This document shows positions 3,948-43,892 of a stretch of 64,000 nt of DNA, piece after piece (position 1 is the stretch's first letter; every line of letters begins with the position of its first letter). This DNA is from an uncultured virus (IMG/VR IMGVR_UViG_3300023179_000075) (Duplodnaviria > Heunggongvirae > Uroviricota > Caudoviricetes). The notes beneath the pieces are model-generated. The model searched no databases. It worked only from the letters and a program-made list of their open reading frames with translations, and was not told the DNA's origin. Position numbers and translations under genes: made by a program. Where the stretch lies: the IMG/VR virus record IMGVR_UViG_3300023179_000075, one strand, 5' to 3'.

Positions 3948-4469
3948 TTAGCTTATGTGGGAGATTATAGTAGCGATACGTTCTTCGGTTGTACCTTTTA
4001 CTGTTAATAAATTTTTGTGTTTGTATTCGTTTAACATTTCACGTATTGTATGATCAATTTTATTGCGATAATCAGCATCAATAGTACGAACACCGTTATC
4101 TTCTATATCAACGCCTTCTGGCGATACATAAATTATTAAATCATATTCATCACGTAGCGACATTAATAATTCAGTAAAATATCGCTTATTAGTCCAACCA
4201 ATTGATTCAGCACTTAACGTAAATGCACATACATCATATACTGTTCTATCAGTAATAATATTTTCCTTCATCAATTCAATACTACGTTCAGCAGCGAATG
4301 TCAATTGACCTTTTAATGTAGAGTCTGTATTTAATGTAATGCCTTGATCACGTAAATATTTGCTACGTTCTACTGCTATTTCATAATCCTTAAATTGCTC
4401 TAATTCTTTTAGTGCATTTACTAATGTAGTTTTACCAACACTGATTGTTCCTGTTAATCCAATCTTCAT
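3948..4469 (-). CDS. NadR/Ttd14-like P-loop kinase (AAA_28 type)
   Basis: MKIGLTGTISVGKTTL Walker A, ITDRT motif, EDNGVR motif typical of NadR-C/nucleotide kinases. Confidence 0.75.
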   Translation of the reverse strand: MKIGLTGTISVGKTTLVNALKELEQFKDYEIAVERSKYLRDQGITLNTDSTLKGQLTFAAERSIELMKENIITDRTVYDVCAFTLSAESIGWTNKRYFTELLMSLRDEYDLIIYVSPEGVDIEDNGVRTIDADYRNKIDHTIREMLNEYKHKNLLTVKGTTEERIATIISHIS

Positions 4470-8803: not shown

Positions 8804-9463
8804 TTATCTTTCGGGATCAAACTGATCAGCCGCTGTTTCATCGTCTATATCTTGTTGAGTTGGTACTCCGTATTTCATTACTTGTTCCATGTATGATTTG
8901 GCATCTTCCATATCATCTCTATCCAGGTTAGCTTTAAGATATAAACGTAGTTCATTATCATTAAGTGGATCCATGCTATAGCGCTCACGAGGTGAGAAGG
9001 CTTGTTTAAAAGCAGGGTCTCTTCTATATTGTACTATCCAGTTAATATCTTCAGGATCACCCTCTTTAAAGCTATAGCCTCCAAATTCATTTAAGATACC
9101 AGCTAATTGCTGCATTCTTTTAGTTACGTTTTCATAAATTTCTCCTTCAACTGATTTTTCAGTCATGTATTCAGACACGCTATGAATATAATCTGATGCT
9201 AATGTAATGTACGATGATACCCAACCTGGTAAATTTTCACCTGGTTCAATCATTTGATATAATTTTGCTCCGTTCATAAGCATATCGCGTAATTCACTCT
9301 TAGCCATTGATGCTTCGTGGTCTTCAGTTTCATCTATATTAGCCGCTATTGCCTTACGACGATTAGCAAGATATTTATCTGTTTTATCATTGTCAATACC
9401 ATTATTATTAATATCGGCATCTTCCTGACCTACTTTATCTAATAATTCGGATAATTTTATCAT
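8804..9463 (-). CDS. Modular hypothetical protein (MIKL leader, D-x-N-N-x-G loop, internal RMQQLAG)
   Basis: EDADINNNGIDNDKTDKYLANRRKAI; LPGWVSSYITLASDYI; VTKRMQQLAGILNE. Confidence 0.65.
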   Translation of the reverse strand: MIKLSELLDKVGQEDADINNNGIDNDKTDKYLANRRKAIAANIDETEDHEASMAKSELRDMLMNGAKLYQMIEPGENLPGWVSSYITLASDYIHSVSEYMTEKSVEGEIYENVTKRMQQLAGILNEFGGYSFKEGDPEDINWIVQYRRDPAFKQAFSPRERYSMDPLNDNELRLYLKANLDRDDMEDAKSYMEQVMKYGVPTQQDIDDETAADQFDPER

Positions 9464-10917: not shown

Positions 10918-13518
10918 TTAAATATTTTTGGTTTCATTAATGTGCTGTTGTATCATACTACGTACCTCATCTAAATGACGTGGATGTTGAGTTACATATT
11001 CACGTACAATATACGAACGGACTTCTGCCAAATTGCGATTTTGCAATGCTGACATTAATTCGGATGGTGAATTTATTGGGATCATTGTATTTCCATTAGC
11101 ATTACCTAATAATATATAGTTTCTATTTCCTGGTTGTACATTGATAGATGCTATTATTTGTTGGTTAGCTAATCTAATTATATATATTTTACTATCTCCT
11201 ACAGCTATTACTCTACCTACACGACCTGCCGCTCCTAATTGATTATTACGGCGAGCCGCACCTCTATCACCATTTGGATCAACACGTACACCATTAGTAA
11301 CATTTAATCTTCTAAGATCAGCTCTTGGTAAACGTAAAAATGCTACATCCAATCCTATTTCATCCATTGTATTAGCAATATTGATATCACCAGCTGCTGC
11401 CGGTTGAGCTACACGTGGTGTATTAGGTTGACCTGCTGGTCTACCTCTTCTGCCAGTTGCTGTAGTAGCTTGTGTTGCAGGTAATGCTCCGCCTAATATA
11501 ATTGAAGCGGTATATGATGTTAAATTAGCTTTTACTAGTTTGCCTGTATCGGATAGTTTAAGGCTTTCTCTAGGATTTGTTCTATTGACTAGATATGCAT
11601 TTTCATTATATATTTTAGGGACATATCTACTAGTTGAAGATATTGGTGGTTCAAGACGTACAACTTCTTTTTTAATATTGAAAGATATGCCTGATTTTAA
11701 TATAAGTAATAATGTTTCTTCAGTAAGAGATTTACCTTCACTTCTTAAATAATCAAAATATGATTGAAAGTAAGGTACTGTTGGAGAAGCATAGACATTA
11801 AATATTCTCCAATCACCATTTCTTCCAAAGGCCTCTATAGGTTTATATGAATAACGGTCGGGGTTATTTGGAGTTTCAGAAGCCCAAAAGAAATTATTAT
11901 CACCTTCGCTTGATGTTAATAGTACTGCGGCTCCTCCACCAATATATTTCATTCTGCCACTATATGGGGTTGCATTTACAATAGATAGTAATGCATCTTT
12001 ATCTACAGAAGTAGGTATATCTTTAGGTTCTGATAGTAAATTTATTGCGCTTTCTTGAAAGCCTTTATTATCTTCCATTCCAGCAAATACTTTCTGTACT
12101 TCTTCACTATCAAATGGTATTTGTGTTATTTTATCTCCTTCTATTTTATATGAAGCGAATGAATTTGAATCTAATAAAATATCAACACCGTCTACATTCT
12201 TAACTACCATAGCAGAATCAGAATCGGTTTTAGCGTTTTTAATAACATTATTAATAACTTCTTTATCAATAATTTCGTCTGATACTAGTTTTACTAGACT
12301 TTTAAAAGGTATTTTATCTAATTCAGTATAATCAAGTAAGAATCTTGATGTACGCTTGTTTAATTTAACGTTAGGGAAATCATCATCAGCTTGATATAAA
12401 CTAATTTTAATATCATCTCCTAATGTTAATTTAACAATAGTGGAACCATCTTTAGTAACATATAATCTTTCATCATTATTAAGATCCCATTTATTAAATT
12501 TAACTAATAGTTTTTTAACATCAAATGGAATAGTGTCTGCACTTAGATATTTTAAATTAATTGTATCTCTCATATTTGCTATGATCGATTTAACATCTTG
12601 ATTTGAAAACTTATCTAAATATGATACTAATGTTTTACTGCTTATAATACCAGCATTAGTAGAAATAAATGTAGCAACTTGAGGGTATTTCGGTAAATAT
12701 TTTTCTACAAATTCATCATTAGTGATATCTTTAAATAAGTCTTTACCTTTTCTAACAACTAAATATTGTTCTTTTACAGTATATGGAAAATTAGACCATT
12801 CTCTAATTGTTACTGGGTTGGTTTTATATGTTTGGTTTATTTTTTCACTAGACGATAATGGAATATATTTAAATATGTTACGTAATCCTCTAATTGAAGG
12901 GAAATTTTGTTCAACAAAGCTAAATGGTTCCCATTTATCCCATTCGGTACCTCTACCACCAACGTCGTTATTTGATCTGTCTGATGCTTTATAAGTATCA
13001 TCCTTACCAACAACAACAACGAAGAAACTCTTACGATCGCTATCAGGTAAATTTGTATCTTTAACTAAATAAAATGTTGGATTCTTTCTATTGTCATCGT
13101 AACGATAGTTACCAAATGATCCTCGGGTAATACACCACTTTTCACCAGCACCAAAAGTTAAACAGTTATTTTCTTTAGAACCATTATATATAATTAAACC
13201 ATTTTCATTGTAAACAATATCTGGTGTGGTATCAATAGCGTCTTCTGGTTCTGCTACACCTTTAGATGATGTAACTAATTTGATTAATTTAGATAAAGAG
13301 TATTTACGTAAATCTTTTTCAGTTACTTTAGGTGAGTTTTTTAAAGAATCAAAACGTTCAATATATGCTTTTAATTGAGCATCCGTAATTTGAATATTTA
13401 AATCGTCAGCTTCATCTTTAAATTGAGCCATTAAACGATTTATTTCGCCCTCAGAATATTCATTCAAAGGGAATAAATTGTGTGTTACGTGGATTATAAA
13501 TTTATCTATTGCTCTCAT
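10918..13518 (-). CDS. Large hypothetical protein (866 aa); N-terminal G..WCI domain, internal GRRGRP
   Basis: CLTFGAGEKWCIT...TFYLV segment resembles PcfJ-like domains of large phages (tentative). Confidence 0.55.
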   Translation of the reverse strand: MRAIDKFIIHVTHNLFPLNEYSEGEINRLMAQFKDEADDLNIQITDAQLKAYIERFDSLKNSPKVTEKDLRKYSLSKLIKLVTSSKGVAEPEDAIDTTPDIVYNENGLIIYNGSKENNCLTFGAGEKWCITRGSFGNYRYDDNRKNPTFYLVKDTNLPDSDRKSFFVVVVGKDDTYKASDRSNNDVGGRGTEWDKWEPFSFVEQNFPSIRGLRNIFKYIPLSSSEKINQTYKTNPVTIREWSNFPYTVKEQYLVVRKGKDLFKDITNDEFVEKYLPKYPQVATFISTNAGIISSKTLVSYLDKFSNQDVKSIIANMRDTINLKYLSADTIPFDVKKLLVKFNKWDLNNDERLYVTKDGSTIVKLTLGDDIKISLYQADDDFPNVKLNKRTSRFLLDYTELDKIPFKSLVKLVSDEIIDKEVINNVIKNAKTDSDSAMVVKNVDGVDILLDSNSFASYKIEGDKITQIPFDSEEVQKVFAGMEDNKGFQESAINLLSEPKDIPTSVDKDALLSIVNATPYSGRMKYIGGGAAVLLTSSEGDNNFFWASETPNNPDRYSYKPIEAFGRNGDWRIFNVYASPTVPYFQSYFDYLRSEGKSLTEETLLLILKSGISFNIKKEVVRLEPPISSTSRYVPKIYNENAYLVNRTNPRESLKLSDTGKLVKANLTSYTASIILGGALPATQATTATGRRGRPAGQPNTPRVAQPAAAGDINIANTMDEIGLDVAFLRLPRADLRRLNVTNGVRVDPNGDRGAARRNNQLGAAGRVGRVIAVGDSKIYIIRLANQQIIASINVQPGNRNYILLGNANGNTMIPINSPSELMSALQNRNLAEVRSYIVREYVTQHPRHLDEVRSMIQQHINETKNI

Positions 13519-13527: not shown

Positions 13528-14058
13528 TTACCATTTGCGACATGACCAATAATTTGCTTTAGTGCGTGGACCTGGATTGTCACAATGGTGTCTTGCTCTA
13601 TATGCTTTGCGGCGTGTAGGATTATTCTTTTTAATATTCATCCCATGAGCGCCAAAATTTACTTTAACAACTCTTCCTGATTTAGGGTCTTTAACATATA
13701 CCTTAAACTTTTTAATATCGCCTTGCATTGGTTTGCCTAATTGTACTGAGTGGCCATGGTATTCGGCTTCATAAACACAACTGCAATTAGCTTCTGCTAA
13801 TCTTTTATTGTGTTCTTTTATAAATTGAAGGAATTCTACTACGTCTTGTTTATTTTCAACGTCATATTCATCTAAATCGTCATTGTAGTGATAGCTATTA
13901 TCAAATCCACATTTGTGGCACATATATTTATCTCTTCCACCGTCTTCTGATTTCCATCTCCAACCACATTTTTCACATTCAATAGTTTTATCTTCGCCTA
14001 TGAAAAATGCTTCACTTAATATGTTGCGAATAAATTGTTTTAATTCTGTAGGTTTCAT
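13528..14058 (-). CDS. Conserved phage protein with Zn ribbon and basic C-terminal domain
   Basis: CEKC..CHKC ribbon; KKFKVYVK..VKVNFG..RARH.C..YWSCRKW. Start MKPTELK preferred. Confidence 0.65.
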   Translation of the reverse strand: MKPTELKQFIRNILSEAFFIGEDKTIECEKCGWRWKSEDGGRDKYMCHKCGFDNSYHYNDDLDEYDVENKQDVVEFLQFIKEHNKRLAEANCSCVYEAEYHGHSVQLGKPMQGDIKKFKVYVKDPKSGRVVKVNFGAHGMNIKKNNPTRRKAYRARHHCDNPGPRTKANYWSCRKW

Positions 14059-14062
14059 ATTT

Positions 14063-14467
14063 TTATTTATTATGTACTTTTGCTTTTTTAGTGTTAGGTA
14101 CAAACTGTTTATCAGATGCTACTTTTTTCTTTGCTGTAGCAGCGCGTTCAGCTTTAGTTAAACTATTTGCTTTAGCACGAGGTAAACAACGAGTTGTTTT
14201 ATGTCCTTTTTTCATTGTACCACAAGGACCAGTTATATTGCCTGCTGTATCAATACGAACCCAATCTTCTGTTTTAAACCAATCATGTAATGATTCATCT
14301 AAATCGTCTTCTTCCATTAATCCTTTACACACTTTAACAGCACGACCAGAAAGATAAGCTGATGGTTTTTCACCAGCAGCTCTACGGCGGTTATAATAAG
14401 CTTTACCTTTAGGGCATAGCTTCTTCTCAGCTAAGATGTCTTGTAATATTTCTGTTAATTTAACCAT
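14063..14467 (-). CDS. Basic conserved phage protein (DUF5872-like)
   Basis: PSAYLSG..VK.CKG; LHDWF..EDWVRI; RCLP..KA. Confidence 0.6.
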   Translation of the reverse strand: MVKLTEILQDILAEKKLCPKGKAYYNRRRAAGEKPSAYLSGRAVKVCKGLMEEDDLDESLHDWFKTEDWVRIDTAGNITGPCGTMKKGHKTTRCLPRAKANSLTKAERAATAKKKVASDKQFVPNTKKAKVHNK

Positions 14468-14698
14468 TTATTTATTTTTAGGAACCCACCAAATACAAAC
14501 ATACTTAGTTGGTTCAGTTGGTATTTTTCCGTCTCCGTTCCAATTAATATAATATTGACCTTCACACAATTGTGTTTCAGAATTCCATTTAGCACAATTA
14601 GCACACATTGCCCCACCTTCCGGTACTTTTTTAGCCGGTTTGAATCCATCTGGGAATTCTAGTGGTTTTGGTTCTACTATTTCGGATAATTTAATCAT
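14468..14698 (-). CDS. Small four-Cys protein, HiPIP-like spacing
   Basis: MIKLSEIVE leader; CANC..W...C...YVCIWW. Confidence 0.45.
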   Translation of the reverse strand: MIKLSEIVEPKPLEFPDGFKPAKKVPEGGAMCANCAKWNSETQLCEGQYYINWNGDGKIPTEPTKYVCIWWVPKNK

Positions 14699-14699: not shown

Positions 14700-14993
14700 T
14701 TATATTCTTTGTCCTTGGTAAGCATTAATATCTGAATCATCACCAGCGTATGAGTTACTTATACCTGAGTTAACAAATGTAGGTGTACCCGCTTTAGCGT
14801 ATGTTGCTTCATGTTTATCACTCGCTGCATCTGCATGTCCTATTATAGCAGAGACTTGAGAAGCAATAACTTCAGGGTCATTGCTAGATAATGCTGTTTC
14901 AGCACATTTTATAATGGCGTTAAAATGATCACGCCAGTGTGTATAGCTAGATGTATCTACATCTTCGTTAAGTAAATCTATTAGCTTAATCAT
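14700..14993 (-). CDS. Hypothetical protein with MIKLIDLLNE leader
   Basis: 97 aa ORF. Confidence 0.6.
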   Translation of the reverse strand: MIKLIDLLNEDVDTSSYTHWRDHFNAIIKCAETALSSNDPEVIASQVSAIIGHADAASDKHEATYAKAGTPTFVNSGISNSYAGDDSDINAYQGQRI

Positions 14994-15906: not shown

Positions 15907-18663
15907 CTATTTTTTATTTTCGTAGATATTTTCGTTGTTTTTACCGAATTTCCTTAATAATATACCGGCTTGGGCATTTGCTTCATTCTCAATTTCTGAG
16001 CCTGTATCGCCACTATTATAATCAATACGTCCATCTTCATCTTGTTTACGATGAACTAATTCGTGTGCTAATGTACGTAATACATCAGCCATATTTCTAT
16101 TTTTAACATATAACCATATTTTACCATCATTTGGATCAAATGTGCCAAATGTATGGTGAGATTTAGCAGTATTGGTATTGTATGATAATGTTAATCCCTT
16201 TGGCATTTTTGTTATTCCTAGTTCCTTAACAGCAAATTTAATAAATTCTTTTATTATGTTTGAATTTATTTTTTTATCTAAACCTTCGTTTATATTATCT
16301 TGTTGTTTTGATATTATTATATAAGGTTGATCTATTTCATCTTTTACTTGAATATTAAAATCGTTTTTAGATAATTTATTGTTTATTAATGCTCTAAATA
16401 ATCTATATCTAGTATATCCAGCCGGTTGAATTAATATTTTGTTATGATTTGGTAATACTTCATTTAAGAATATTTTAAATACAGTATTCATAACTTTAGG
16501 GTTATAATGTTTTACATTATTGAATCCTAACATTTTACCATTTTCATCTACATTATAAAATTTAAATTCAGTTAAATCGCCTTGTTGTTTTGTTTTTGCA
16601 ATAACTTTAAAATTATCTATATCATCATGAAAAATAAAAAAATTATTATTTCTAGAATAATCATAAACATTATCTAAATTTATTTGATATTCGGAAATCA
16701 TTCCATAATGTGCTATATCAGATTTAATATCTTCTTGTATTTTTTTTGAATAAAAATTTTCCTTTACTACTACAGGATATTCAACTGGTACATTAGTTTT
16801 TAAATTTAGTGTGCCTTGTATTACTGAAGGAATTGAGCCTAAAGCTCTATATAACGATAATACTACTTCTCCACCAACTAAATAATATTTGTCTTGAGCG
16901 TAGCATAATACAAGTGGTAATGGCATTTCCTTACCCGCTTTAATAAAATCAATGTATGGTTTAGGATTAATACCTAATTTTAAAGAGTGTTGAATAGCGT
17001 CATCTAATGTTTTCATTTTATATGACTTACTATTTTCTAATTTAGACCATATATCATCATTTAATACTACTTCTCTACCAGCATCAAATGCATACTCCAT
17101 ATCACTAATAGGTAAATTAAAGAAATACGAGGCTTTCTCTATTTTATTTCTATTTTGTAATATATAATCTTGATAGTCGTCTTGTTCAAACTCAAGTGGA
17201 GGTGATTCTTGTAGTGGTGCTTCAGGGGATGGAGCAGTAGGAACGGGTTCAGATGGTGTTTCTGGGGTAGGAGCGGGTTCCGCTGGTTTACCTAGAGCTG
17301 CCATAAATTCTTCTACAGTAATGCCTTCAGGTAAATATCCTTGAATTTCTTCATCATTGTTATCTTTTAATAACGCCATTCTTAATCCAGTAGCATTTAC
17401 ACCTTCTATTTCACCTGCATCAAATATAGTTACGTTTGGATATTCATTCATTGTTTTATACCTATCTATTTCTCCTTTACCAAATGCCACTAAAAAATTA
17501 GTACTAGGATTTTCTTTAACAACATCATACGTTTCTTTAATAGGTGTAATTTCTGATATTTTTATTTCAACTGAGCCATCTAATTTAGTCTTATATAAAT
17601 TCCATATAGCAACACTTTCATCGGCTGTAATACCTTCACGTGTTTTAGGTGATATTAATATTACTACTTCATCTGCTCGTTGTAATAATTGTTTTACTAC
17701 ATCGAAATGACCTTTATGAGGTGGTTTAAACGCTCCGGGAAATAGAGCAATTGTTGTTTGATCTGCTTCAAGTAGTGTAGAAGCTAAATATTTTCCTAAA
17801 TTAGTTTCAGCTAATGTAGAATTTACTTTATCTAATGCTTTTTGTTTGTTGTCGCCTTTAGGCGTGCCAACTTCACCGCTTTTAATAGATACCATAGAGT
17901 TAAATATTCCTTTTATACGGTTTTTAGAGCGTAGATTTTGTAATTTAGATGATAAATCATTTAATAAATCTTCCCAGCTACCGTCTATATTGTAATTTGT
18001 AAATAGTTTTTTAATACTAGACCAATTGCTAGTTTTCCATACGTCTGTTTTGTCTGTTTCTTTAAAATTATCTAGTGTTACTATACGTAATGTTAAACCG
18101 GCACTTGATAAATTAAATTCATACTCTTGATTGGGCTCAAGTGCCGGAATATTTTTAATCCCCATGCGAGCAAATATACTCTTAGGATCTTCCTCTAAAC
18201 ATATGGTTTTAGCTAATCCTAGCATTAAACCTTGTATCTCAGCAGGATAGTCTAAAAATTCTTTTTTAAATTCAGCTTCTTCATTACTAATAGAAATAAT
18301 ATTATCTATTTGAACGTATTCGTCAGGTTGTCCTACTATAGGATATAATATTGTAATTATTTCGCCTGTGTTAAGATATTTTTTACCTTTATATTTATCG
18401 CTTTTAAAAGGAACAATAACATCATCTGGTAGTGATGATATATATTTTGCTAATTCTGCTTTAATGTTTTTCTTATCGGTTGCGGTTAAATTAACTACTA
18501 AATCAATATCGCCAAAATCATTTTTAGTACCAGTATTATATGAACCGGATGGCTTTGCACCTTTAAATCCAGGAAATTTACTCAATACTTTATTAATGTA
18601 TTCTTCAACTGTCTTAGCAACAGATGGCCTAATTATTCTATTTCCTCCTGCTGACCCAGACAT
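15907..18663 (-). CDS. Multidomain protein: Pol-beta-like nucleotidyltransferase + HxGH nucleotidyltransferase + HExxH metallopeptidase-like domain
   Basis: SGSYN..DFGDIDLVV..VQID; ALFPGAFKPPHKGH..NATGLR; RTLAHELVHRKQ..ENEANA. Confidence 0.7.
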   Translation of the reverse strand: MSGSAGGNRIIRPSVAKTVEEYINKVLSKFPGFKGAKPSGSYNTGTKNDFGDIDLVVNLTATDKKNIKAELAKYISSLPDDVIVPFKSDKYKGKKYLNTGEIITILYPIVGQPDEYVQIDNIISISNEEAEFKKEFLDYPAEIQGLMLGLAKTICLEEDPKSIFARMGIKNIPALEPNQEYEFNLSSAGLTLRIVTLDNFKETDKTDVWKTSNWSSIKKLFTNYNIDGSWEDLLNDLSSKLQNLRSKNRIKGIFNSMVSIKSGEVGTPKGDNKQKALDKVNSTLAETNLGKYLASTLLEADQTTIALFPGAFKPPHKGHFDVVKQLLQRADEVVILISPKTREGITADESVAIWNLYKTKLDGSVEIKISEITPIKETYDVVKENPSTNFLVAFGKGEIDRYKTMNEYPNVTIFDAGEIEGVNATGLRMALLKDNNDEEIQGYLPEGITVEEFMAALGKPAEPAPTPETPSEPVPTAPSPEAPLQESPPLEFEQDDYQDYILQNRNKIEKASYFFNLPISDMEYAFDAGREVVLNDDIWSKLENSKSYKMKTLDDAIQHSLKLGINPKPYIDFIKAGKEMPLPLVLCYAQDKYYLVGGEVVLSLYRALGSIPSVIQGTLNLKTNVPVEYPVVVKENFYSKKIQEDIKSDIAHYGMISEYQINLDNVYDYSRNNNFFIFHDDIDNFKVIAKTKQQGDLTEFKFYNVDENGKMLGFNNVKHYNPKVMNTVFKIFLNEVLPNHNKILIQPAGYTRYRLFRALINNKLSKNDFNIQVKDEIDQPYIIISKQQDNINEGLDKKINSNIIKEFIKFAVKELGITKMPKGLTLSYNTNTAKSHHTFGTFDPNDGKIWLYVKNRNMADVLRTLAHELVHRKQDEDGRIDYNSGDTGSEIENEANAQAGILLRKFGKNNENIYENKK

Positions 18664-19637
18664 TATGCTTTTTCTTTTTGGTGAGGTATTAAATTAGATA
18701 CGTCAGGTAAAAATTTACCTTTTAATCCTAATCTTTCTTGATTATCAATCCAATATTGTTGTAAATTTTCAGGTATATCAGTTCTAGTTGAGTCTAATAT
18801 TTTAAGATATCTATCTATAATAGAATTATATTCTTCTTTAGATAGATTTTTCTTCATATAATCTTCTAATTTAAAATAATCATCTAGAATATCTTGAGTT
18901 AAATGAAAATCATATAACGTATTTAATAATTTAATTGCTTCTTGTGGTGTTTTTGCTTCTTGTGCGCCTGTCTCTTTATCTGTAACACCTGTTGAATGGC
19001 CGAATGTTCTACCTTTATTTGAAAATAAAGCTAACATAAGTTGAGTACGATGTAATCCCTTAACATTGCCTGAGTAGGTATTAGAATAGTAACTAAAGCG
19101 CAACCATTCCGGATTACCTATATTGATATCGGTTTGAACTGCTTTGCCTATTTTTTTATTACCGGCTCCGTATTGTGGTATAGCGCAGAATATAGATCCA
19201 GAACCTGATGCTTTGGTGTCTATTTCAACATCGGCTAAAGCGTCATTAATTCTATCTCCAATTAGTACAATCATAGCTCTCAACTGAATTTTCTCAGGTG
19301 ATGCTGTTCTAGAACTCTTAGTAAATTTTGCTACTAAATCATTGTATTTTGCTTCATCCACACCCCAACCTTTAAAATCTGGTGTTTTACCATCAGGAAA
19401 TAAATTTTTAATGTTGTATGATAAATCAATATCACCCGATACATCTTTTTTACCAGCTGAACCTAATTTATCCATTGATTGGAATGTTGAGGCTTTAGCA
19501 GGAAATACACGTGATAGATCAGAAATAAATTTATCTATGGTTGGTTGGATATTTGCTTTATCAATTGAATCGGTAGTTCCAAATACATTACCACCTTCGG
19601 TTAATATGCGTTTAACTATGTCTAGTAATCTAATCAT
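18663..19637 (-). CDS. Pol-beta superfamily nucleotidyltransferase
   Basis: LGSAGKK..SGDIDLS and VQTD third carboxylate; ILTE then GGNVF leader. Confidence 0.7.
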   Translation of the reverse strand: MIRLLDIVKRILTEGGNVFGTTDSIDKANIQPTIDKFISDLSRVFPAKASTFQSMDKLGSAGKKDVSGDIDLSYNIKNLFPDGKTPDFKGWGVDEAKYNDLVAKFTKSSRTASPEKIQLRAMIVLIGDRINDALADVEIDTKASGSGSIFCAIPQYGAGNKKIGKAVQTDINIGNPEWLRFSYYSNTYSGNVKGLHRTQLMLALFSNKGRTFGHSTGVTDKETGAQEAKTPQEAIKLLNTLYDFHLTQDILDDYFKLEDYMKKNLSKEEYNSIIDRYLKILDSTRTDIPENLQQYWIDNQERLGLKGKFLPDVSNLIPHQKEKA

Positions 19638-19661: not shown

Positions 19662-19688
19662 AGGTGGCTCAACTTAGTCAAGCCACCT
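19662..19688 (-). terminator. Intrinsic terminator
   Basis: AGGUGGCU...AGCCACCU followed by UUUUA. Confidence 0.7.
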
Positions 19689-19698: not shown

Positions 19699-20487
19699 TT
19701 ACTCTGCTATTTTAATCGAAATAGGTAATATTTCAGTGTGTGGCTTAGAGTCTGGATTTTCAAGTTTATATATTTCGTATATATTTTTAAACATTTGAAA
19801 ACTTGCCGCTATATTACCGTACGAACGTAGCTCCCATCCTTTACCTTGAATTTTACCATCTTTACCAGCTGTGCGAGTAGCTGCTTTTAACCACAATACA
19901 CCTGTTTCTTCAATTGGAGTATTATGTGTTTCACTCCACGCCATAGCGTATGCTGCTAACTGTAGGCTAAAGGATGTGTGTAGTGAGTTTGATGTTTTAA
20001 TATCAAGTAACCATAACTTACCATTAATCTTACAAATTAAATCTGCTGTTCCAGCATACTCATGATTGTCTGAAAATACATGATATTCAGCTGCAATTAA
20101 TTCTGGTTTGTGTGTGTTCCAGAAATCAGCAAATTTTAAAATCATCTTCCAAACATCTAGATTGTACTGGGCTTTACCAAATTCATCAATCCATTGAATT
20201 TCTTCTCCACCAATAAATCTTTCAATAGCGTTGTGAACTTGTGTACCTTCACCAGCTGCTTTTTGAGCAATGATATCAGCATTGTGTCCAACGTCTTTTA
20301 ACCAAGAATGAAAAAATTTGTTTTTAGGAAAGTAATTAAGTACTGATGTTACAGAAGGGTAGTATTTACCATCTCGATTGTAAAATCTACTGTCTAAAAC
20401 ATTAACTTGTTTATCCCCTTCCTTATATTCTACAAGGCGTTTAATTTTGGGATCCTTAATAATGTTTGCATGTCTTTCAATAATCAT
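19699..20487 (-). CDS. PD-(D/E)XK exonuclease (Cas4/RecB-like)
   Basis: YPSVTSVL, GTQVH, E...YAGTADL..LLDIKTS..QLAAY. Confidence 0.85.
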   Translation of the reverse strand: MIIERHANIIKDPKIKRLVEYKEGDKQVNVLDSRFYNRDGKYYPSVTSVLNYFPKNKFFHSWLKDVGHNADIIAQKAAGEGTQVHNAIERFIGGEEIQWIDEFGKAQYNLDVWKMILKFADFWNTHKPELIAAEYHVFSDNHEYAGTADLICKINGKLWLLDIKTSNSLHTSFSLQLAAYAMAWSETHNTPIEETGVLWLKAATRTAGKDGKIQGKGWELRSYGNIAASFQMFKNIYEIYKLENPDSKPHTEILPISIKIAE

Positions 20488-21422
20488 AATTGTAGTTTTT
20501 TAAGCAATAAGCTTTGAAAGTCTAAAGGTTGGGCTTGTTCGATGCAATTTAAAAATCGTTCAAATCCAATTTCACTAGCATCTTTACCATCTAATTCTAC
20601 TAAGTAAACATCCTTACCATATGTCATTAATTCTTGAGCATATTTTAAAGCATTCTTAATAGCATCTGGATCTAGAGCAATGTAAATTCTGTTGACAGAG
20701 GAACTTACTAACTTTTTCATTAATTTTTCGTGAATAATTTTCCCAAATAACGGGATTACGTTGCGTTTTACTGTTAATGCATCAAACATACCTTCGATAA
20801 GGATAATAGGAGCGTCCCAGTTTATGTATAGTTCTAAACCTATTGCTGATTTAGCATCGGTAGGGGGATTTTTATATTTTTGCATTCCTTCTTTATAAGC
20901 ACGAGCTATGAAATAATTTACTATTCCATTTTCATCGTACGATGGTATTATAACTCTATCTTTATATGAACCTTCATTACAAAAACCAATATTATATTTT
21001 ATTATATCTTCTTGTGTTATACCTCTTGTTCTTAAAAATTTAAGAGCATGTTTAGAATCTATCTGTGTTAATCTATTTAAGTCAGTTATATCAATTAACG
21101 AAATAAATTCCTTAGGTAATGATAATGCTGTAATATCCTGTTTATATTCAACACCACTAGGAACAATAATCATGTTTAGTTCAGCTAATTTATTAGCAGG
21201 AACTTTAGCGTTTTTAAGGAGAGATCTAATGGTTTTACCTTTAGCCTCACACACCCAACAATGCCATGGATTCTCTTTTTTTGCGTTTGTTACGCAATTG
21301 ATTTCCATTTTATTCTTATGGTGGTTACAAAACGGACATTTAAATGCATAATTACCTCTACTAGTCTTAGCACCAGTACCTAGTATGGATTCCAATAAAA
21401 TTATAAGTGCAGCATTTTCCAT
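20484..21422 (-). CDS. DNA primase (Zn finger + TOPRIM)
   Basis: CPFC/H..WHCWVC Zn finger; LIEGMFDA and ALDPDA TOPRIM motifs; KDAS. Confidence 0.9.
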   Translation of the reverse strand: MENAALIILLESILGTGAKTSRGNYAFKCPFCNHHKNKMEINCVTNAKKENPWHCWVCEAKGKTIRSLLKNAKVPANKLAELNMIIVPSGVEYKQDITALSLPKEFISLIDITDLNRLTQIDSKHALKFLRTRGITQEDIIKYNIGFCNEGSYKDRVIIPSYDENGIVNYFIARAYKEGMQKYKNPPTDAKSAIGLELYINWDAPIILIEGMFDALTVKRNVIPLFGKIIHEKLMKKLVSSSVNRIYIALDPDAIKNALKYAQELMTYGKDVYLVELDGKDASEIGFERFLNCIEQAQPLDFQSLLLKKLQL

Positions 21423-21448: not shown

Positions 21449-21898
21449 CTATACAAAGTCTTTCCTATAAAACTTAGCTAGTATATTATCATTATAGCTG
21501 TCAATGAATAATACATTATCTATAATTTGTTGTTGCATCTCGAGGAATGTAAGTTGTTTTTTGGTATTAGCCTCTCTTAATATGACTCTTTCAAATTTAT
21601 CTTCACCTAATAATTTAATATCAGCAAGTAATTCTTTAGACGAGCCCCAATACGTTTTCCAACCACTATCAACTTGTTCAGTTTTAGTTGTTGGTTTGCG
21701 GCCACGGCTAGTAGGTAATGCCGCTATTTCTTTCTTACCTAATTTCTTCTTTTTGTTGTGGATGTATGATTTTTTACCAATGTAAAATTTACCTGTTTCT
21801 AGGTTAGTAATTCTATATATAAAACCATAACTGTCTGTAGTGTAATTTTCATCCATATGGATATTAACTCCATCTAGATTGTATAACCAATTGCTCAT
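21449..21898 (-). CDS. GIY-YIG (Seg-like) nuclease
   Basis: GFIYRITNLETGKFYIGKK..YWGSS..FERVIL..E..YN. Confidence 0.8.
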   Translation of the reverse strand: MSNWLYNLDGVNIHMDENYTTDSYGFIYRITNLETGKFYIGKKSYIHNKKKKLGKKEIAALPTSRGRKPTTKTEQVDSGWKTYWGSSKELLADIKLLGEDKFERVILREANTKKQLTFLEMQQQIIDNVLFIDSYNDNILAKFYRKDFV

Positions 21899-25278: not shown

Positions 25279-26808
25279 TTATACTGTAAAGCACCTTGCA
25301 AAGCCCCCACCACTAAAACTTACTTGTATTGTATATTTATGACTATTTACTATTATATCTTGCGGACTTGAAGTAATATTTTGACCATTTACTGATAATG
25401 TTAGTATTTTTGCACTATCTCCGTCACTACTAAATCCTAATGTATTATTTACTGATGATTGACCTGCATTCTGAGTGAGAGTAACTCCACCACTTGAAAG
25501 TGGTGTACTACAAGCATTATCTACAAATCCTTGAGCTGTTACAACCCAAACTAATTGATCCTGTGTAGGAGTAGCTGGGTTAACATATGTAATTGCATTC
25601 CAAGATGAATAAGGAGGGAACTGTAAGTCAATATATGCTGTAGCAATAAATGGTATAGTTGTTGTACTAGTTGTAGTACTAGTTGTTGTTGTTGGTGCAG
25701 TCGTTGTACTAGTTGTAGTCGACGTAGTTGTTGTTGGTGCAGTAGTTGTAGTAGTTGTTGTACTAGTTGTTGTTGTTGGTGCTGTAGTCGTTGTTGTTGT
25801 TGTACTAGTTGTTGTTGGTGCTGTAGTCGTTGTTGTTGTTGTACTAGTTGTTGTTGGTGCTAATACATCTACTATAACTTTAGCTTGATTACTAGTCATT
25901 GAACATCCACTATTACATAAGCCATTTACAGTATAATAAATATTATATGAACCTACTGTTGTAGTATTTAATGTTAAAGTACCATTTGCGTTTACTGTGT
26001 AATATGGTGAGTTACTACCTGATATTACTACTGAGCCTGTATCTATAGCACATGATCTTGCAACATCATTTGCTAATATAGTTATTGTTTTTGGGCTATC
26101 TGTATCTAAAAATGAAGCTGAATCATTATATGCTAATGGAGGTAATGGAAACATTAACTGATAGTCAGGTTCCGTAATAGTTGCTAACCCATGAGCATAG
26201 AATATATTTCCAACATGAGTATTCCAAGCTGGGTCATATGTTAAGAAATATGATTCTGCATTAAAGTAAGATCCTGAAATATAGCCTGATGTTAGATTTT
26301 TTGATACATCATATAAATTACCATTACCATCATCCACAATAAAATAAACAGATGATGTTAATTTAAAACTATAAGGTAATACTTTAGAGCCATATATATC
26401 TTGTTCTATAGATAATAATCTAATTCCCGCTCCGGGACCAGTAGGAAAATTCTTTATTAAACGAGGATTAACGTTATAATCAAAGTATGATTGAGTAGGG
26501 CGTTGTTGAGAAGCAGATTCATAAGTATTAACGTTAAACATTAATGAACCTGTATTTAATGCTCTTCCATTATATGATTGATAAAACATATGATTCATGG
26601 AATCATAAATTAATCTTTCGTATTCACCATTAGTAACAGGATCAACAGATGCATCATCCGATACAAAAGTACCTGTTATATAGGTACCTTTATAAATATT
26701 AAAATAAGGATTATTGGAAAAGCAGGTGTATGGTAAATCCCACTGCTTGTTAGCAGAGTATAAAACAGTTGTGACGTCAGCCTTGCTTAATTTTTTGAAT
26801 ACAGACAT
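25279..26808 (-). CDS. Virion structural protein with Ig/cadherin-like domain and mucin-like Thr repeat
   Basis: IVDDGNGNL..VGNIFYAHGL core; PLAYND..ILAND..YTV Ig-like segment; APTTTSTTTTTTT repeats. Confidence 0.7.
   Translation of the reverse strand: MSVFKKLSKADVTTVLYSANKQWDLPYTCFSNNPYFNIYKGTYITGTFVSDDASVDPVTNGEYERLIYDSMNHMFYQSYNGRALNTGSLMFNVNTYESASQQRPTQSYFDYNVNPRLIKNFPTGPGAGIRLLSIEQDIYGSKVLPYSFKLTSSVYFIVDDGNGNLYDVSKNLTSGYISGSYFNAESYFLTYDPAWNTHVGNIFYAHGLATITEPDYQLMFPLPPLAYNDSASFLDTDSPKTITILANDVARSCAIDTGSVVISGSNSPYYTVNANGTLTLNTTTVGSYNIYYTVNGLCNSGCSMTSNQAKVIVDVLAPTTTSTTTTTTTAPTTTSTTTTTTTAPTTTTSTTTTTTTAPTTTTSTTTSTTTAPTTTTSTTTSTTTIPFIATAYIDLQFPPYSSWNAITYVNPATPTQDQLVWVVTAQGFVDNACSTPLSSGGVTLTQNAGQSSVNNTLGFSSDGDSAKILTLSVNGQNITSSPQDIIVNSHKYTIQVSFSGGGFARCFTV
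25657..25860 (-). repeat. Five tandem 39-42 bp coding repeats, (A)PTTT(T)STTT(T/S)TTT
   Basis: Recurrent gtactagttgttgttggtgc units on the plus strand. Confidence 0.95.
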
Positions 26809-26811
26809 GCA

Positions 26812-27801
26812 TTAATAATCTAATTTGATTCTAATTAAAGCTTCTTTGGTAAAATCTTTTACCAATGGTTTACTTAATTTAGCTACAGCTAATAACTCAT
26901 TATTATCATTATACATACCTACTGTTGTAACGTATGTTTGTGGATTATTAATTAATGTAGTATATAATAAATTACCATTATCATCTATAATAGATGGATT
27001 AGTAGTATAATTAAATTCACTATTCTTAACGCGTGTGAAGAAATAACGTGATGAAATAACTTCTTGAGATTGTGCTTGAAATCCTGTACCTCCAGCTGTT
27101 GCTGATGCGGAGATTGAAGTAAATAATTTTAAATGGTTATTTACTGCTACTGTATTTCCTTGAGATGGGGTTGTGATATAAGGGCTTAATGAACCAGAAG
27201 CATTTAGAATAACTATTCCTAAATCAGGTAACATCATACCGTAGTAAGTATTAACCGCGCTGCTAGTATATGCATTACCATTACTACCACTAATAATATA
27301 ATAAACTCTATTTTCACCTAAAAAACGTGTTAAACCTGTTGTATTACTATCATCTGTTAATTTAATAGTATTAGCACCATTTTTTAATGATAAATTAAAT
27401 GTACCCTGTTGAATTGATTGCTTATAGCGGGTTCTAGAAATATTAATTGCGTAAATGTCAGTTGCTGTTGTAGTACCACCATCAAAACTAAAGTTTGTTG
27501 TTTCAGTACCGTATACTAAGTTTCTATACTGTCCATAAACAATACGTGATGGAGAATACCCTGCTACAGTAGAGTTAATAGGAGCTGAACCAGATCCGTA
27601 AATATTACCATATTGAATATCAAATTGTACTTCTGAGCCAGATGCTGCTGATCCTGTTTGATATACATCTAAGTAGTATTCTGTGTAGGTACTAGCTGTA
27701 AAGAATGTAGATAGAGTATATGCGTCTCCAGTCCACATTGGGCGAACTACGGTTTCGGCACTTATTACTGAATCATCGGTATTATATCTTGAAAATGACA
27801 T
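26812..27801 (-). CDS. Virion structural protein
   Basis: S/T/G-rich; C-terminal VGMYNDNNELLAVAKLSKP; in the structural operon. Confidence 0.7.
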   Translation of the reverse strand: MSFSRYNTDDSVISAETVVRPMWTGDAYTLSTFFTASTYTEYYLDVYQTGSAASGSEVQFDIQYGNIYGSGSAPINSTVAGYSPSRIVYGQYRNLVYGTETTNFSFDGGTTTATDIYAINISRTRYKQSIQQGTFNLSLKNGANTIKLTDDSNTTGLTRFLGENRVYYIISGSNGNAYTSSAVNTYYGMMLPDLGIVILNASGSLSPYITTPSQGNTVAVNNHLKLFTSISASATAGGTGFQAQSQEVISSRYFFTRVKNSEFNYTTNPSIIDDNGNLLYTTLINNPQTYVTTVGMYNDNNELLAVAKLSKPLVKDFTKEALIRIKLDY

Positions 27802-27816
27802 GTTTATATTTATTTA

Positions 27817-28485
27817 TTAGGTTGTACTTACTTTTTGAATATTAATAGGAATAGTAATTCTTGCACCACTATCTCTACCAATTACAGTTAATGTAGTAGT
27901 TAAGGTAGTTAATGTAGTACCATATAATGTATTAACAGTTGTTCCAGTTAATGTGAATGAAGTACCTAGATCAGATTTAGATAATACAGCTCCTGTAGTT
28001 GTATTTAGTGTACTATTTCCAACAGCTGCAGTTACTGTAACTCCAGTACCTGTAAATGATGATAATAATCTAATATCAGAGATTGTAGCTATATATCCAT
28101 TAGCTTCAAATGTACTTGTAGCACCTAAGTAATTAAGTGTTTGTGGAGTAATCGTGATTGAAGCACCTTGTTTAAGTGTAATGGTATTGTAACCTAAGCT
28201 AACAACAGGCAGACGAGAAGTACCACGTGGAAGTGTTACTAATTTGTAACGCATAATCTGTGTGTCGTTAGGAAATGCTTGAATAATAGGCATTGCCTCA
28301 ATTGCTTCACCATAGAACGCTGAGCCAGATGGTTGATTTGGATTATATAATGTATAATCAATTTCATCATCAGCCAATGAAAATTGTGTAATTTGGAATG
28401 AACCATCGTTACGAGCCAATAATTCGCGACCTTTAGTGGTTAGAATTGCATCTACGGTTACTGTTGTAGGATTTAATATTGCCAT
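27817..28485 (-). CDS. Virion structural protein
   Basis: VDAILTTKGRELLA..FSLADDEIDY; Thr-rich beta C-terminus; ATATTTAT upstream. Confidence 0.65.
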   Translation of the reverse strand: MAILNPTTVTVDAILTTKGRELLARNDGSFQITQFSLADDEIDYTLYNPNQPSGSAFYGEAIEAMPIIQAFPNDTQIMRYKLVTLPRGTSRLPVVSLGYNTITLKQGASITITPQTLNYLGATSTFEANGYIATISDIRLLSSFTGTGVTVTAAVGNSTLNTTTGAVLSKSDLGTSFTLTGTTVNTLYGTTLTTLTTTLTVIGRDSGARITIPINIQKVSTT

Positions 28486-28539
28486 GTTTTATGTTTGTAT
28501 ATACTAATAAATATATTAAAATTCGATTTTGGTTATAAA

Positions 28540-29463
28540 TTATGCAAGATCTGATGATGCCGTCACAGAATATACTCTACTTGATGATGCATTAAATGTA
28601 AATGACTGTAAGTTTGTATAACTAGTTACTACCGATGTAAGTGTATTATCATATAATGTTATAGAATCGGTTTCATTTTTTATTTTAAGTCTAAAGCTAC
28701 CAGTTTGTCCGGATGTTGTTCGGCAGTTTTGGTTAACATATATAGATGAACTTGGTGCAAAAATTAATGAACCAGAGGTACCTGTATATCCACCTGCTAA
28801 TAGAACGTAATCTATGTAAAGATCATTATCAATCCAAGGAGATGGATGATATTCATATTGAGCCCAATTTATTATAGGAGATGTAGAAGATTTAATATCT
28901 GCTGATATTTGGTAGTAATTTGAGCTTGTTGGATTTAATGTATAACTTGCGCTAATAGAAGATGTAACACGAGATATTAAGTTACTACCACTATATATAT
29001 AAAGTTCATTAACATAACTATTTCCAGAATACAATGTTACATTATATTTACTAGATGAAGAAAAAGATACAGTACCATTATTTATATTCCAATCCATTCC
29101 TATGTTTAATATTTCTTCTAAAGAAGAAGAGTTTACTATTTTAAAATAATAATTAGGATTTATATTTATACCTATTAATTCTGTAGTAAAATTTATAGAG
29201 CCATTATATAAAGAGGAAGTAGCATATGCTAATGTATAATCTGTATAAAAATCTGTTTGAGAATATGGAAAATTAGCGATTATATTGCTTCCACTATAAA
29301 CAAATATTCTAATATCTCCTAAAGTAGCATCAAATTCAGATCCAGTAGTATTATATGCACTAGCTGATATTACTAGGCTAACTCCTGTAAATACCTGTTG
29401 GATAGCATTACTATCTGTGGTAGCTACTACAGTACTAGTTAAAGGGTAATGAGTTACTTGCAT
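28540..29463 (-). CDS. Ser/Thr/Tyr-rich beta protein, probable tail fibre or decoration protein
   Basis: Composition and position. Confidence 0.5.
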   Translation of the reverse strand: MQVTHYPLTSTVVATTDSNAIQQVFTGVSLVISASAYNTTGSEFDATLGDIRIFVYSGSNIIANFPYSQTDFYTDYTLAYATSSLYNGSINFTTELIGININPNYYFKIVNSSSLEEILNIGMDWNINNGTVSFSSSSKYNVTLYSGNSYVNELYIYSGSNLISRVTSSISASYTLNPTSSNYYQISADIKSSTSPIINWAQYEYHPSPWIDNDLYIDYVLLAGGYTGTSGSLIFAPSSSIYVNQNCRTTSGQTGSFRLKIKNETDSITLYDNTLTSVVTSYTNLQSFTFNASSSRVYSVTASSDLA

Positions 29464-33931: not shown

Positions 33932-34255
33932 TTATCCTTTTAAAGCGGTTTGTGTATCTAAAACGGTCTGTCTTAGAGTTGTTATTTCATCTAATAGAGC
34001 TTGAATATCGTCATTATTTAAGTTTATACCTAAATATTCAGCTTCTTTTTCAAGGATATATCTATGTGAATTTATATCTCCTTCTTTTGGTATTTGATAA
34101 AATATTTCTTCGTATAATTTAAAAAATTCATCTACCGTTAAGGGTGCTGCTACATTAGAGGTTTGTTGGTTAATTAATTGACTAAATTGAGTATTAACTA
34201 CCTTCTCGAATGTATTCTTATCAAATACTTGTTTTTGTATAAAAATTTGAGACAT
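33932..34255 (-). CDS. Hypothetical virion-region protein
   Basis: 107 aa ORF in operon. Confidence 0.65.
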   Translation of the reverse strand: MSQIFIQKQVFDKNTFEKVVNTQFSQLINQQTSNVAAPLTVDEFFKLYEEIFYQIPKEGDINSHRYILEKEAEYLGINLNNDDIQALLDEITTLRQTVLDTQTALKG

Positions 34256-42233: not shown

Positions 42234-42235
42234 AA

Positions 42236-42433
42236 TTATCCTCTAAATTGTTGTTCAAAATCATCCGGTTCAACCGAAATTATTTCTCTAATACTCTCAA
42301 GTGATTCTTTTAATGCATCAATAGAATCTTGAATTTCATTTTGACTTATATTTCTATTCACTTGAAGTTGAATACGATTAACAGCAGTATCTACCGTAAC
42401 TAATTTGTCTAAAACATTGTTTTTGTATCTCAT
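42236..42433 (-). CDS. Hypothetical protein
   Basis: 65 aa; ATATTTAT upstream. Confidence 0.55.
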   Translation of the reverse strand: MRYKNNVLDKLVTVDTAVNRIQLQVNRNISQNEIQDSIDALKESLESIREIISVEPDDFEQQFRG

Positions 42434-43886: not shown

Positions 43887-43892
43887 CGCGTA

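Follow-up and report, generated by a model that had tools for sequence, protein, structure and literature searches.

What is the role of two adjoining genes, A and B, on a 64,000-nucleotide stretch of DNA from an uncultured tailed virus (IMG/VR record IMGVR_UViG_3300023179_000075), the whole of which we call the window? Gene A (18663..19637, minus strand, 324 residues) and gene B (15907..18663, minus strand, 918 residues) are open reading frames (ORFs) confirmed as listed, the stop of A overlapping the start of B as TAATG, in a sequence of ~31% GC in which every gene lies on the minus strand. A appears to be a nucleotidyltransferase, and B appears to be an enzyme polyprotein that joins a miniature PolX-like nucleotidyltransferase (B_N), a HIGH-type nucleotidyltransferase (the HxGH domain), a ParB/sulfiredoxin (Srx)-like domain (mid1), a GNAT-like domain (mid2), and a zincin, with disordered linkers that each carry an [LIV]-x-E motif (Table 1). 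The first-pass annotation, made from the letters and their translations, had proposed a protease-processed polyprotein of enzymes that are probably delivered by the virion. The form of that proposal is supported and a virion link is plausible, subject to two amendments, namely that the nucleotidyltransferases resemble PolX and that the phage's head protease is a more likely processor than B's own HExxH domain. We judge the balance to lie slightly in favor of a cargo role, A and B being part of a gene cluster whose products would be targeted to the capsid and processed by the prohead protease of a T4-like myophage that is Flavobacterium-type and akin to Immutovirus.

Why should these proteins be thought to travel in a capsid? 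A begins with a leader that resembles a capsid-targeting sequence and recurs on neighboring genes. The pattern M[IVLM][KRQ]L is found at 5 of the 374 candidate Met starts on the coding strand, and each of the five begins a gene in the interval 9.4-19.7 kb (19637, 14993, 14698, 14467, and 9463); on the other strand, none of 38 candidate Met starts matches the leader pattern. Among the 120 closest relatives of A, 107 have a leader that ends in [LIVMF]xE before GGNVF, another ten are called from a later Met (ME-GGNVF), and in the remaining three the leader is internal, behind an HxGH domain. Homologues of the 14063-14467 protein at four related loci (L004, L005, L013, and L014) start MIKLTEIL..(I/L)L.E, related loci carry up to six leader-type genes around A/B, and in G001, a 159.6-kb relative, nine genes in three clusters start MIKL and continue the leader pattern. 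A second type of leader, FSKEWW..LxLxE|SPP, is present on stand-alone mid1-zincin proteins. We considered whether the shared leader might be a DNA repeat or recombination element and rejected this idea: the upstream DNA is unconserved and the codons differ, which indicates a peptide signal and not a repeat of the DNA.

The T4 prohead protease family (PF03420) is found above cut-off in all three near-complete relatives (E 3.5e-32 to 6.9e-36), followed within a few kb by a T4 gp23-type capsid protein, again in all three (E 1.8e-76 to 1.6e-85). The gp23 proteins of these relatives contain (I/L)V(S/T)E|A in their N-terminal part, ahead of the conserved core, and T4 gp23 is cut at a comparable ...LTE|A site. 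As a separate observation, two gp23-type genes lie in tandem in the closest long relative (L048/L049, G001 98-102 kb; frames of 565 and 567 residues), possibly a gp23/gp24-like pair or a duplication. For T4 itself, passages of PMC9026906 describe a 10-residue N-terminal capsid-targeting sequence that steers internal proteins into the prohead core; the protease gp21 removes this sequence by cutting after Glu, in a reaction governed by residues 8 and 10, and the enzyme Alt is trimmed at both ends.

The same hydrophobic-x-Glu (hxE) ending recurs inside B. The first-pass annotation had named [LIV]xE sites near domain boundaries, which we locate at B 284, 297, 484, 633, 642, and 791, and across homologues this motif is conserved in the linkers. 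Counted over representatives of 50%-identity clusters, which are related sequences and not independent events, [LIVMF]xE is present at the end of B_N in 78 of 84 proteins (background 0.17; 16 of 100 anchored proteins stop before the scored segment), in a 17-residue segment before mid1 in 34 of 34 (background 0.27), typically as PLQE|SPP, and before the zincin in 54 of 58 (background 0.29). At the third position of the motif before the zincin, Glu alone is enriched (0.93, versus 0.12 for Asp and 0.33 for Lys), and the linker Glu is followed in most cases by S, G, or N. Stretches of low pLDDT (predicted local distance difference test) in the structural models contain the motifs or adjoin them, and the motifs coincide with the points at which, in relatives, one protein gives way to separately encoded ones; B_N proteins that stand alone end in ...hxE, and HxGH proteins that stand alone begin MNLG.

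The modules between these motifs are shuffled among relatives. An exhaustive search returned 3168 metagenomic cluster representatives at E <= 1e-3, and in the best 150, which were mapped onto modules, we see fused, split, and permuted arrangements: B_N alone, B_N-HxGH, HxGH-mid1-zincin, and mid1-zincin, together with permuted forms including HxGH-x-A-B_N and zincin-A-B_N. Fusions of A to B_N occur in 11 of these 150, never in reversed order, HxGH-A fusions are found in P0052, P0053, and P0119, and no module recurs beside the others more often than the zincin. A has a B_N homologue after it at 25 of the 29 related viral loci, two of these being fusions, and the protein downstream of A, where complete, ranges from ~480 to 1149 residues. 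Two loci depart from this arrangement: a P-loop protein with a MIKLLDILKE leader lies between A and the B_N/HxGH gene in one (L014:6957-7793), occupying the usual place of B_N, and a 219-residue ORF does so in the other (L022:6911-7570). These intervening genes indicate that the slot after A takes other cargo-like genes. Two neighbors of A/B in the window draw on the same pool of modules. Residues 38-191 of the protein encoded at 13528-14103 match the end of one representative (P0264, 352-494) at 62% identity by BLASTP, and its zinc-ribbon segment also matches seven further representatives; the N-terminal part of the 10918-13518 protein matches P0123, P0155, P0164, and P0127 by BLASTP (E 3e-23 to 7e-11), the protein giving no family match in PHROGs or NCBIfam. 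It also has an Arg/Gly/Pro-rich segment near residue 660.

A number of points weigh against packaging and processing, and they should be stated together. At 11 immuto-type loci, A starts M-GGNVF with the frame closed upstream and no leader, so targeting by the leader is not universal; given that the leader of other A proteins ends in hxE directly before GGNVF, either route would yield a protein that starts GGNVF. B has no leader and starts MSGSAGG. MIKLxDILxE shares its length, its position, and its hxE ending with the T4 capsid-targeting sequence, to which it is otherwise unrelated in sequence. The protease and gp23 are seen in relatives and not in the 64-kb window, and we found no virion proteome of a relative. 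Within B alone, [LIVM]xE occurs 21 times versus 16.1 +/- 3.4 in 2000 shuffles (fraction at or above the observed count 0.09), with four of the 21 sites falling in 62 linker residues (binomial p 0.049), and such near-chance counts make the motifs unconvincing from a single sequence. In this respect the boundary sites of the first-pass annotation stand on their conservation and not on their frequency in B; chance as their explanation holds for B alone and fails across homologues, although the homologues counted are, as noted, related to one another. A conserved hxE could also be a structural helix cap or a site for B's own zincin. With respect to the enzymes, B_N of the window has no match to PF14792 (DNA_pol_B_palm) at E <= 0.01, and a PolX-like fold is not a demonstration of polymerase activity. 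Lastly, A and B lie directly downstream of a primase and an exonuclease, which fits an intracellular role in replication or repair as well.

This last point leads to the strongest of the alternatives, in which A and B, together with the primase and exonuclease, form an intracellular replication/repair module with PolX-like gap filling and a cofactor-making HIGH-type transferase, B working as one multi-enzyme chain and the leaders and hxE motifs being structural or regulatory. Gap-filling repair is the best-known role of family X polymerases, and the fold of B_N suits it, as does the absence of a leader from B and from immuto-type A. A family scan of the window's 71 ORFs with PHROGs places the large terminase at 301-1917, the exonuclease at 19699-20487, the primase at 20484-21422, and the tail/baseplate genes at ~25-42 kb, with baseplate and tail genes and an endolysin at ~35-38 kb; the A/B cluster thus sits between the tail/baseplate genes and the large terminase. 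Immuto and most related loci keep the gene order of the window, primase-exonuclease-A-B. In immuto, the order reads primase, exonuclease, gp089, gp088, and its records are the only four among 50,697 phage records in which tblastn of A and B finds full-length relatives. Against an intracellular module stands a terminator-like hairpin that lies past the exonuclease gene and ahead of A, with AT-rich sequence separating it from A's ATG; the hairpin suggests that A/B begin a transcription unit apart from the primase and exonuclease. Additionally, such a module leaves unexplained the retention of Glu-ended motifs by linkers that are disordered and otherwise variable, as well as the presence of A's leader on unrelated small neighbors. 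It also meets no DNA ligase: neither the NAD-dependent ligase nor the ATP-DNA-ligase family is found in the three near-complete relatives (RNA ligase is found in one of the three). A self-contained repair kit with its own ligase is therefore not evident and was set aside, a result that also counts against any claim that the cargo itself is such a kit. All told, we regard the intracellular module as unlikely, and return to cargo as the favored reading.

If A and B are cargo, what type of enzymes would be carried? The first-pass annotation had read tandem nucleotidyltransferases of the Pol-beta superfamily from GGN-, GS-, and DxD-type motifs shared by the two genes, and this reading has held up well. 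In A, the residues G15-G16-N17-V18-F19, G59-S60, D69-I70-D71, and D170 are invariant (16 sequences), and in B_N, S2-G3...G6, G40(-S41), D52, D54, and D120 are invariant (17 relatives of the first 290 residues of B); the GS and DxD of B_N fall in line with those of the nucleotidyltransferase 2rff in a weak hidden Markov model match (E 0.075). Pairwise BLASTP does not relate the two proteins significantly (E 0.3), and the paralogy emerges from profile comparison only: hhalign of A against B_N gives a probability of 68% and E 4.7e-5 with small alignments, and 91% and E 1e-6 over 144 columns, with every motif in register, with alignments of 47 and 125 rows. A is thus, by sequence profile, a diverged paralogue of B_N in the Pol-beta superfamily. 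On its own, A has no match among PDB sequences, Pfam, PHROGs, or NCBIfam, and none of its 16 members matches a Pfam nucleotidyltransferase family; an Atlas look-up finds viral clusters without names, one of which carries PF01909 on 33% of its members.

The structural comparisons of B_N are more specific. Its AlphaFold model is of high confidence (pLDDT 93.1; predicted template modeling score, pTM, 0.85), and Pol lambda and Pol beta head the 297 PDB matches that Foldseek returns at E <= 0.001 (E 2.8e-7 and up). In VIA, a structure search that is independent of Foldseek and covered 48,161 chains, the top nine rows are all family X (Z 10.3-11.8, 163-180 residues, root-mean-square deviation (rmsd) 3.0-4.2 A): pol beta 3k75 (Z 11.8 over 180 residues), terminal deoxynucleotidyltransferase (11.8 over 172), Pol lambda (11.4 over 166), Thermus PolX (10.8 over 167), African swine fever virus (ASFV) PolX (10.6 over 163 of its 176), and Pol mu (10.3 over 171). 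Giant-virus PolX proteins are also among the viral structure matches. The family X alignments span model residues 1-240, i.e. palm and thumb, versus pol beta 144-338; B_N starts at the palm, its first residue aligning with residue 144 of pol beta, and the 8-kDa and helix-hairpin-helix subdomains are absent. At the level of sequence families, PF01909 (NTP_transf_2) is borderline for isolated B_N (21.2 bits versus a cut-off of 21) and under cut-off for whole B (17.1 bits), and PF14792 is matched by 6 of 17 B_N family members at E <= 0.01 and, just over its cut-off of 25, by 3 of 34 longer relatives (25.5, 25.7, and 27.5 bits). From the model, we take B_N to be a miniature PolX-like nucleotidyltransferase in the format of ASFV PolX. 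A and B_N would then form a coupled mini-PolX-like pair with the catalytic carboxylates intact in both, and action on the 3' ends of nucleic acids is the activity that we predict as most likely.

Could A and B_N be something other than polymerases? One can imagine template-independent tailing, a CCA-like activity, signaling of the type carried out by cGAS/DncV-like nucleotidyltransferases (CD-NTases), or protein NMPylation, directed against host immunity, with the HxGH domain restoring NAD+; the first-pass annotation had looked in several of these directions. The catalytic core is indeed common to terminal uridylyltransferases (TUTases), poly(A) polymerases, CD-NTases, OAS, and MenT-type toxins (Z 7-9), and there are weak sequence matches to a minimal nucleotidyltransferase, DrrA, and CdnC (E 0.075-2). 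These matches, however, cover ~100-110 residues of the core, whereas family X also covers the second subdomain: in VIA, TUTases, GLD-2, poly(A) polymerases, and CD-NTases reach Z <= 9.2 over ~100-113 residues, core only, and full-length alignment of CdnG and OAS1 to B_N gives rmsd values of 8.6-9.9 A. For B_N, structure prediction thus bears out the Pol-beta-type core that was first proposed, with family X and not the CD-NTase, TUTase, or CCA-type enzymes as its closest relatives.

The NAD+ part of this alternative depends on the HxGH domain, in which HKGH occupies B 316-319. In its alignment, K-P-P-H-x-G-H and T138 are invariant and R141 is conserved in >= 90%. PF01467 (25.1 bits versus 21) and TIGR00125 (31.5 versus 27.7) are both over cut-off, and the profile matches the archaeal nicotinamide mononucleotide adenylyltransferase (NMNAT) 1f9a at E 2.6e-6 and phosphopantetheine adenylyltransferases (PPATs) at ~1e-5. 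The description of this domain as NMNAT/PPAT-like is therefore correct at the level of the superfamily. It does not extend to function, as the NMNAT and PPAT equivalog cut-offs are missed by a wide margin (TIGR01510, 31.4 versus 103.3; TIGR01527, 26.3 versus 181.2; NF002243, 28.1 versus 127) and the equivalog matches are limited to the first 33-44 residues of the domain. By these profiles, the domain is a HIGH-superfamily nucleotidyltransferase and not an NMNAT or PPAT equivalog. The annotation of immuto gp088 as 'nicotinamide mononucleotide adenylyltransferase', which might otherwise speak for NAD+ restoration, covers one of at least four modules and is unsupported at the equivalog level. Additionally, an NadV-type phosphoribosyltransferase (PF04095) is absent from all three near-complete relatives, with control genomes positive and the window covered over its 64 kb, and every NadM-containing phage in the survey reported in passages of PMC9503650 also has NadV. 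NAD+ salvage was accordingly set aside, the HxGH scores being 26-31 bits against cut-offs of 103-181. Overall, the reading of A and B_N as non-polymerase enzymes used against host immunity strikes us as improbable.

The C-terminal half of B is less readily classified. The model of B 476-918 has a pLDDT of 85.3 and a pTM of 0.45, the latter pointing to independent domains, with disordered stretches at model residues 1-19, 147-156, and 314-322; the first of these overlaps the Pro-rich linker, which had been noted in the first-pass annotation and which we place at approximately B 471-486. Foldseek on this three-domain model returns nothing at E <= 0.001, and VIA alone separated the domains. For mid1, VIA gives Osa 4ovb (Z 6.7 over 87 residues) and the sulfiredoxins 6ky4 and 1yzs (Z 6.3), and Foldseek gives PadC 6ryk (probability 0.94), all weak and at the level of the fold; the alignment has a consensus of YYLVGG...LSxYxAL and no arginine among its invariant columns. 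These models weakly suggest a ParB/Srx-like fold. For mid2, VIA gives GNAT acetyltransferases (Z 5.6-6.7) and the DNase-I-like domain of RNase E (Z 6.9), which is not decisive and hints, again weakly, at a GNAT-like fold; none of the 33 related viral loci has mid2, which does occur in a small number of metagenomic relatives, among them P0122, P0125, P0143, and P0188. The zincin is clearer. Its motif, HELVH at B 867-871, had been recognized from the start, and the modeled fold agrees, with VIA matches to Wss1 5xbn (Z 9.6 over 104 residues), 1oz9 (9.2), M1 aminopeptidases (8.4-8.6), Spartan (8.0), and ArdC (6.3). In a 25-row alignment the invariant residues are R, H392-E393-x-x-H396, Q, E417, E419, and A420, with E-x-E-A 21-23 residues past HExxH. 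Pfam assigns the window's zincin to DUF6782 at 15.4 bits, under the cut-off of 27; DUF6782 is matched by 12 of the 25 zincin members (E <= 0.05), and M76, M78, DUF2268, and Tox-MPTase3 by one or two each. The modeled fold is clearly that of a zincin, probably of gluzincin type, with a downstream Glu as a possible third metal ligand, either Glu of E-x-E being a candidate. Action of the zincin and its ParB-like partner on DNA-bound proteins is the activity that we favor as a prediction.

Might this zincin instead process B? Zincins usually select their sites by the residue after the cut, which speaks against it. The least probable of the alternatives, namely that B is a classical polyvalent protein (Iyer, Burroughs, Anand, de Souza, and Aravind 2017, PMC5512222) whose own C-terminal zincin cuts the linkers before or after delivery, can draw on the zincin fold with its invariant HExxH and downstream Glu, on the zincin being the most recurrent module partner, and on phage P1 DdrB (a ParB-like domain plus a zincin), which passages of that paper describe as processed and packaged, but it is opposed by the match of hydrophobic-x-Glu plus a small residue to the specificity of the T4-type prohead protease (passages of PMC9026906), which the relatives encode, and by the presence of the same motif on leader genes and on stand-alone modules that have no zincin. 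Because the hxE motif matches the known specificity of the prohead protease, B's own HExxH domain need not be the processor, and the head protease is the more likely cutting enzyme.

How, then, might the cargo system operate? Late in infection, A would enter the prohead core by means of its N-terminal leader, as would the small neighbors with leaders of the MIKLxDILxE type, and B would follow through association with A or by way of some further signal. The T4-type prohead protease would cut after the Glu of L/I-x-E, removing the leaders and splitting B at its joints into separate enzymes, and these pieces would remain in the head, enter the host with the DNA, and have the incoming genome or the host's defences as their targets. 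For the PolX-like pair, the most likely role would be to fill or extend 3' ends of DNA (or RNA), and the zincin with its ParB-like partner would act on DNA-bound proteins. The fullest version of this scheme, in which the capsid is loaded with a heterodimeric pair of minimal family X polymerases, a DNA-associated zincin, and a nucleotidyltransferase of the HIGH type, all of which the head protease frees from a polyprotein and which are injected with the phage's heavily modified DNA, is a tentative proposal that we hold to be unlikely in all its parts taken together. Passages of PMC10516641 report that in vB_FspM_immuto, a phage of Flavobacterium, all G in the DNA is replaced by a 7-deazaguanine derivative.

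The implications are nonetheless worth spelling out. If this fullest version is right, it would represent the first virion-delivered DNA polymerase/end-modifying kit in a tailed phage, one that acts on genome ends, nicks, and gaps in the first seconds of infection, ahead of phage gene expression. If packaging and cutting alone are right, the T4 capsid-targeting/gp21 system would extend beyond small internal proteins to the delivery of enzyme sets as one precursor. The system would be widespread in a large and environmentally abundant group of aquatic phages, as judged from the cluster representatives found, and the leader and hxE joints would provide a sequence-readable rule for predicting ejected proteins of uncultured T4-like phages. 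The mini-PolX pair is in any case an uncharacterized branch of the family X/Pol-beta world. We are encouraged that a cultured relative, vB_FspM_immuto, exists, as this makes the question directly testable.

Table 1. Features of the A/B locus and its surroundings, with positions in the window
Feature	Position	Strand	Description
Terminator-like hairpin	19662..19688	-	12 pairs (6 G-C), 3-nt loop, T-run; between the exonuclease gene and A
A leader, residues 1-14	19596..19637	-	MIRLLDIVKRILTE; ends L-x-E directly before invariant GGNVF; capsid-targeting-like
A, residues 15-324	18666..19595	-	Predicted diverged Pol-beta-type nucleotidyltransferase, paralogue of B_N (motifs, profile comparison)
B_N, B residues 1-287	17803..18663	-	Predicted mini family-X-like nucleotidyltransferase: palm, thumb-like subdomain, C-terminal helical extension; ends ...STLAE
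HxGH domain, B residues 288-470	17254..17802	-	Predicted HIGH-superfamily nucleotidyltransferase; FKPPHKGH and second motif (S/N)ATxLR
Pro-rich disordered linker, B residues 471-486	17206..17253	-	Ends PLQE|SPP; pLDDT <50 for model residues 1-19
mid1, B residues 487-622	16798..17205	-	Possible ParB/sulfiredoxin-like fold; in relatives usually directly before the zincin
mid2, B residues 636-788	16300..16758	-	Alpha/beta domain inserted between mid1 and zincin
Zincin, B residues 794-918	15910..16284	-	Predicted minimal zincin-like metallopeptidase, H867-E868-x-x-H871 ...E-N-E-A...; linker motif INE|G before it
97-residue gene	14700..14993	-	Leader MIKLIDLLNE; no family match
76-residue Cys-rich gene (ATG 14698)	14468..14698	-	Leader MIKLSEIVE; G001 homologue starts MIKLSELLE
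134-residue basic protein	14063..14467	-	Leader MVKLTEILQDILAE; phrog_23735, function not assigned there
Zinc-ribbon protein	13528..14103	-	Its modules are fused inside relatives of B
866-residue protein	10918..13518	-	N-terminal ~226 residues homologous to the variable mid1-zincin insert in relatives of B
219-residue protein	8804..9463	-	Starts MIKLSELLDK; fifth leader gene; N-terminus matches PHROGs without assigned function

Several features of the surrounding sequence deserve mention. The timing of A/B expression is not derivable from the T4 late-promoter motif TATAAATA, which is at background in the window (25 matches versus 27.5 expected); a sigma-70-like promoter scan is at background as well (79 versus 75.9 in shuffles), and no tRNA genes were found in the window. 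At 21449-21898 (minus strand), a 149-residue ORF matches phrog_447 'NAD synthetase' (E 3.8e-30) and also two homing-endonuclease PHROGs (E 1.7e-11 and 3.9e-8), with no NCBIfam match; immuto gp100 carries the same 'NAD synthetase' label, which looks doubtful. A 173-residue P-loop kinase at 3948-4469 (minus strand) matches a 'thymidylate kinase' PHROG (E 2e-24) and, more weakly, the kinase half of NadR-type profiles (phrog_3462 positions 168-337; TIGR01526 far under cut-off). In the tail/baseplate region, a 1487-residue ORF (29465-33928, minus strand) has no PHROG match at E <= 1e-4, and its neighbors at 25279-29463 and 33932-35370 are among several likewise without PHROG matches. Two adjoining metallophosphoesterase-like genes (59565-61054, minus strand; 250 and 246 residues) both match phrog_1649, and the region 42000-48000 is richer in GC (0.34-0.37 versus ~0.30 elsewhere) and holds many short ORFs (90-210 residues) without family matches.

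How does this locus compare with systems that are already known? In the passages of the literature that were searched, we found no description of the A/B family, and the comparisons below are to its nearest counterparts. With NMNAT and PPAT enzymes, the HxGH domain shares the GxFxPxHxGH motif and an (S/T)xTxxR-like second motif; it differs in its own FKPPHKGH signature, in scores far under the equivalog cut-offs, and in having no NadV partner in the relatives. With family X polymerases, for example ASFV PolX (5hr9), B_N shares a Pol-beta-type palm with G-S and three acidic residues and a thumb-like (nascent base-pair binding) subdomain, and ASFV PolX likewise dispenses with the 8-kDa and helix-hairpin-helix DNA-binding subdomains. 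B_N is, however, only 8-16% identical to family X polymerases and adds a C-terminal helical extension of ~55 residues, and in the phage proteins the N-terminal strand is Gly-rich and invariant (GGNVF in A, SGxxGG in B_N); the two form a coupled pair of paralogues that is often fused to other enzymes.

The phage polyvalent proteins, which passages of PMC5512222 describe as combining disparate enzymes with a zincin and propose to be injected, resemble B in having several disparate catalytic domains per chain, a zincin hub (next to which B has a possible ParB/Srx-like fold), extreme mosaicism, and genes located among virion genes. At the level of sequence the connection is faint: neither P1 DdrB nor any of the PolyVal Pfam models is matched significantly by the window's B, and one representative, P0234, matches the ART-PolyVal model under its cut-off (E 2.2e-5, 25.7 bits versus 31.2). 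In the passages of PMC5512222, Pol-beta nucleotidyltransferases are listed for conjugative elements only, as minimal versions, and no HIGH-type transferase appears; the nucleotidyltransferases described here, in contrast, are PolX-like and phage-borne, and their processing motif fits a prohead protease. A further parallel is with the T4 internal proteins IPI-III and Alt. Like these, A and its neighbors have a short N-terminal leader, mostly of 10 residues here and of 14 in A, that ends in hydrophobic-x-Glu and is common to clustered, otherwise unrelated genes; the relatives encode a T4-type protease and gp23, and the cargo can be an enzyme, as is Alt (passages of PMC9026906). What sets the present locus apart from T4 cargo is that one phage cargo, as read from sequence alone, would be a five-module polyprotein with a candidate cleavage site at every joint.

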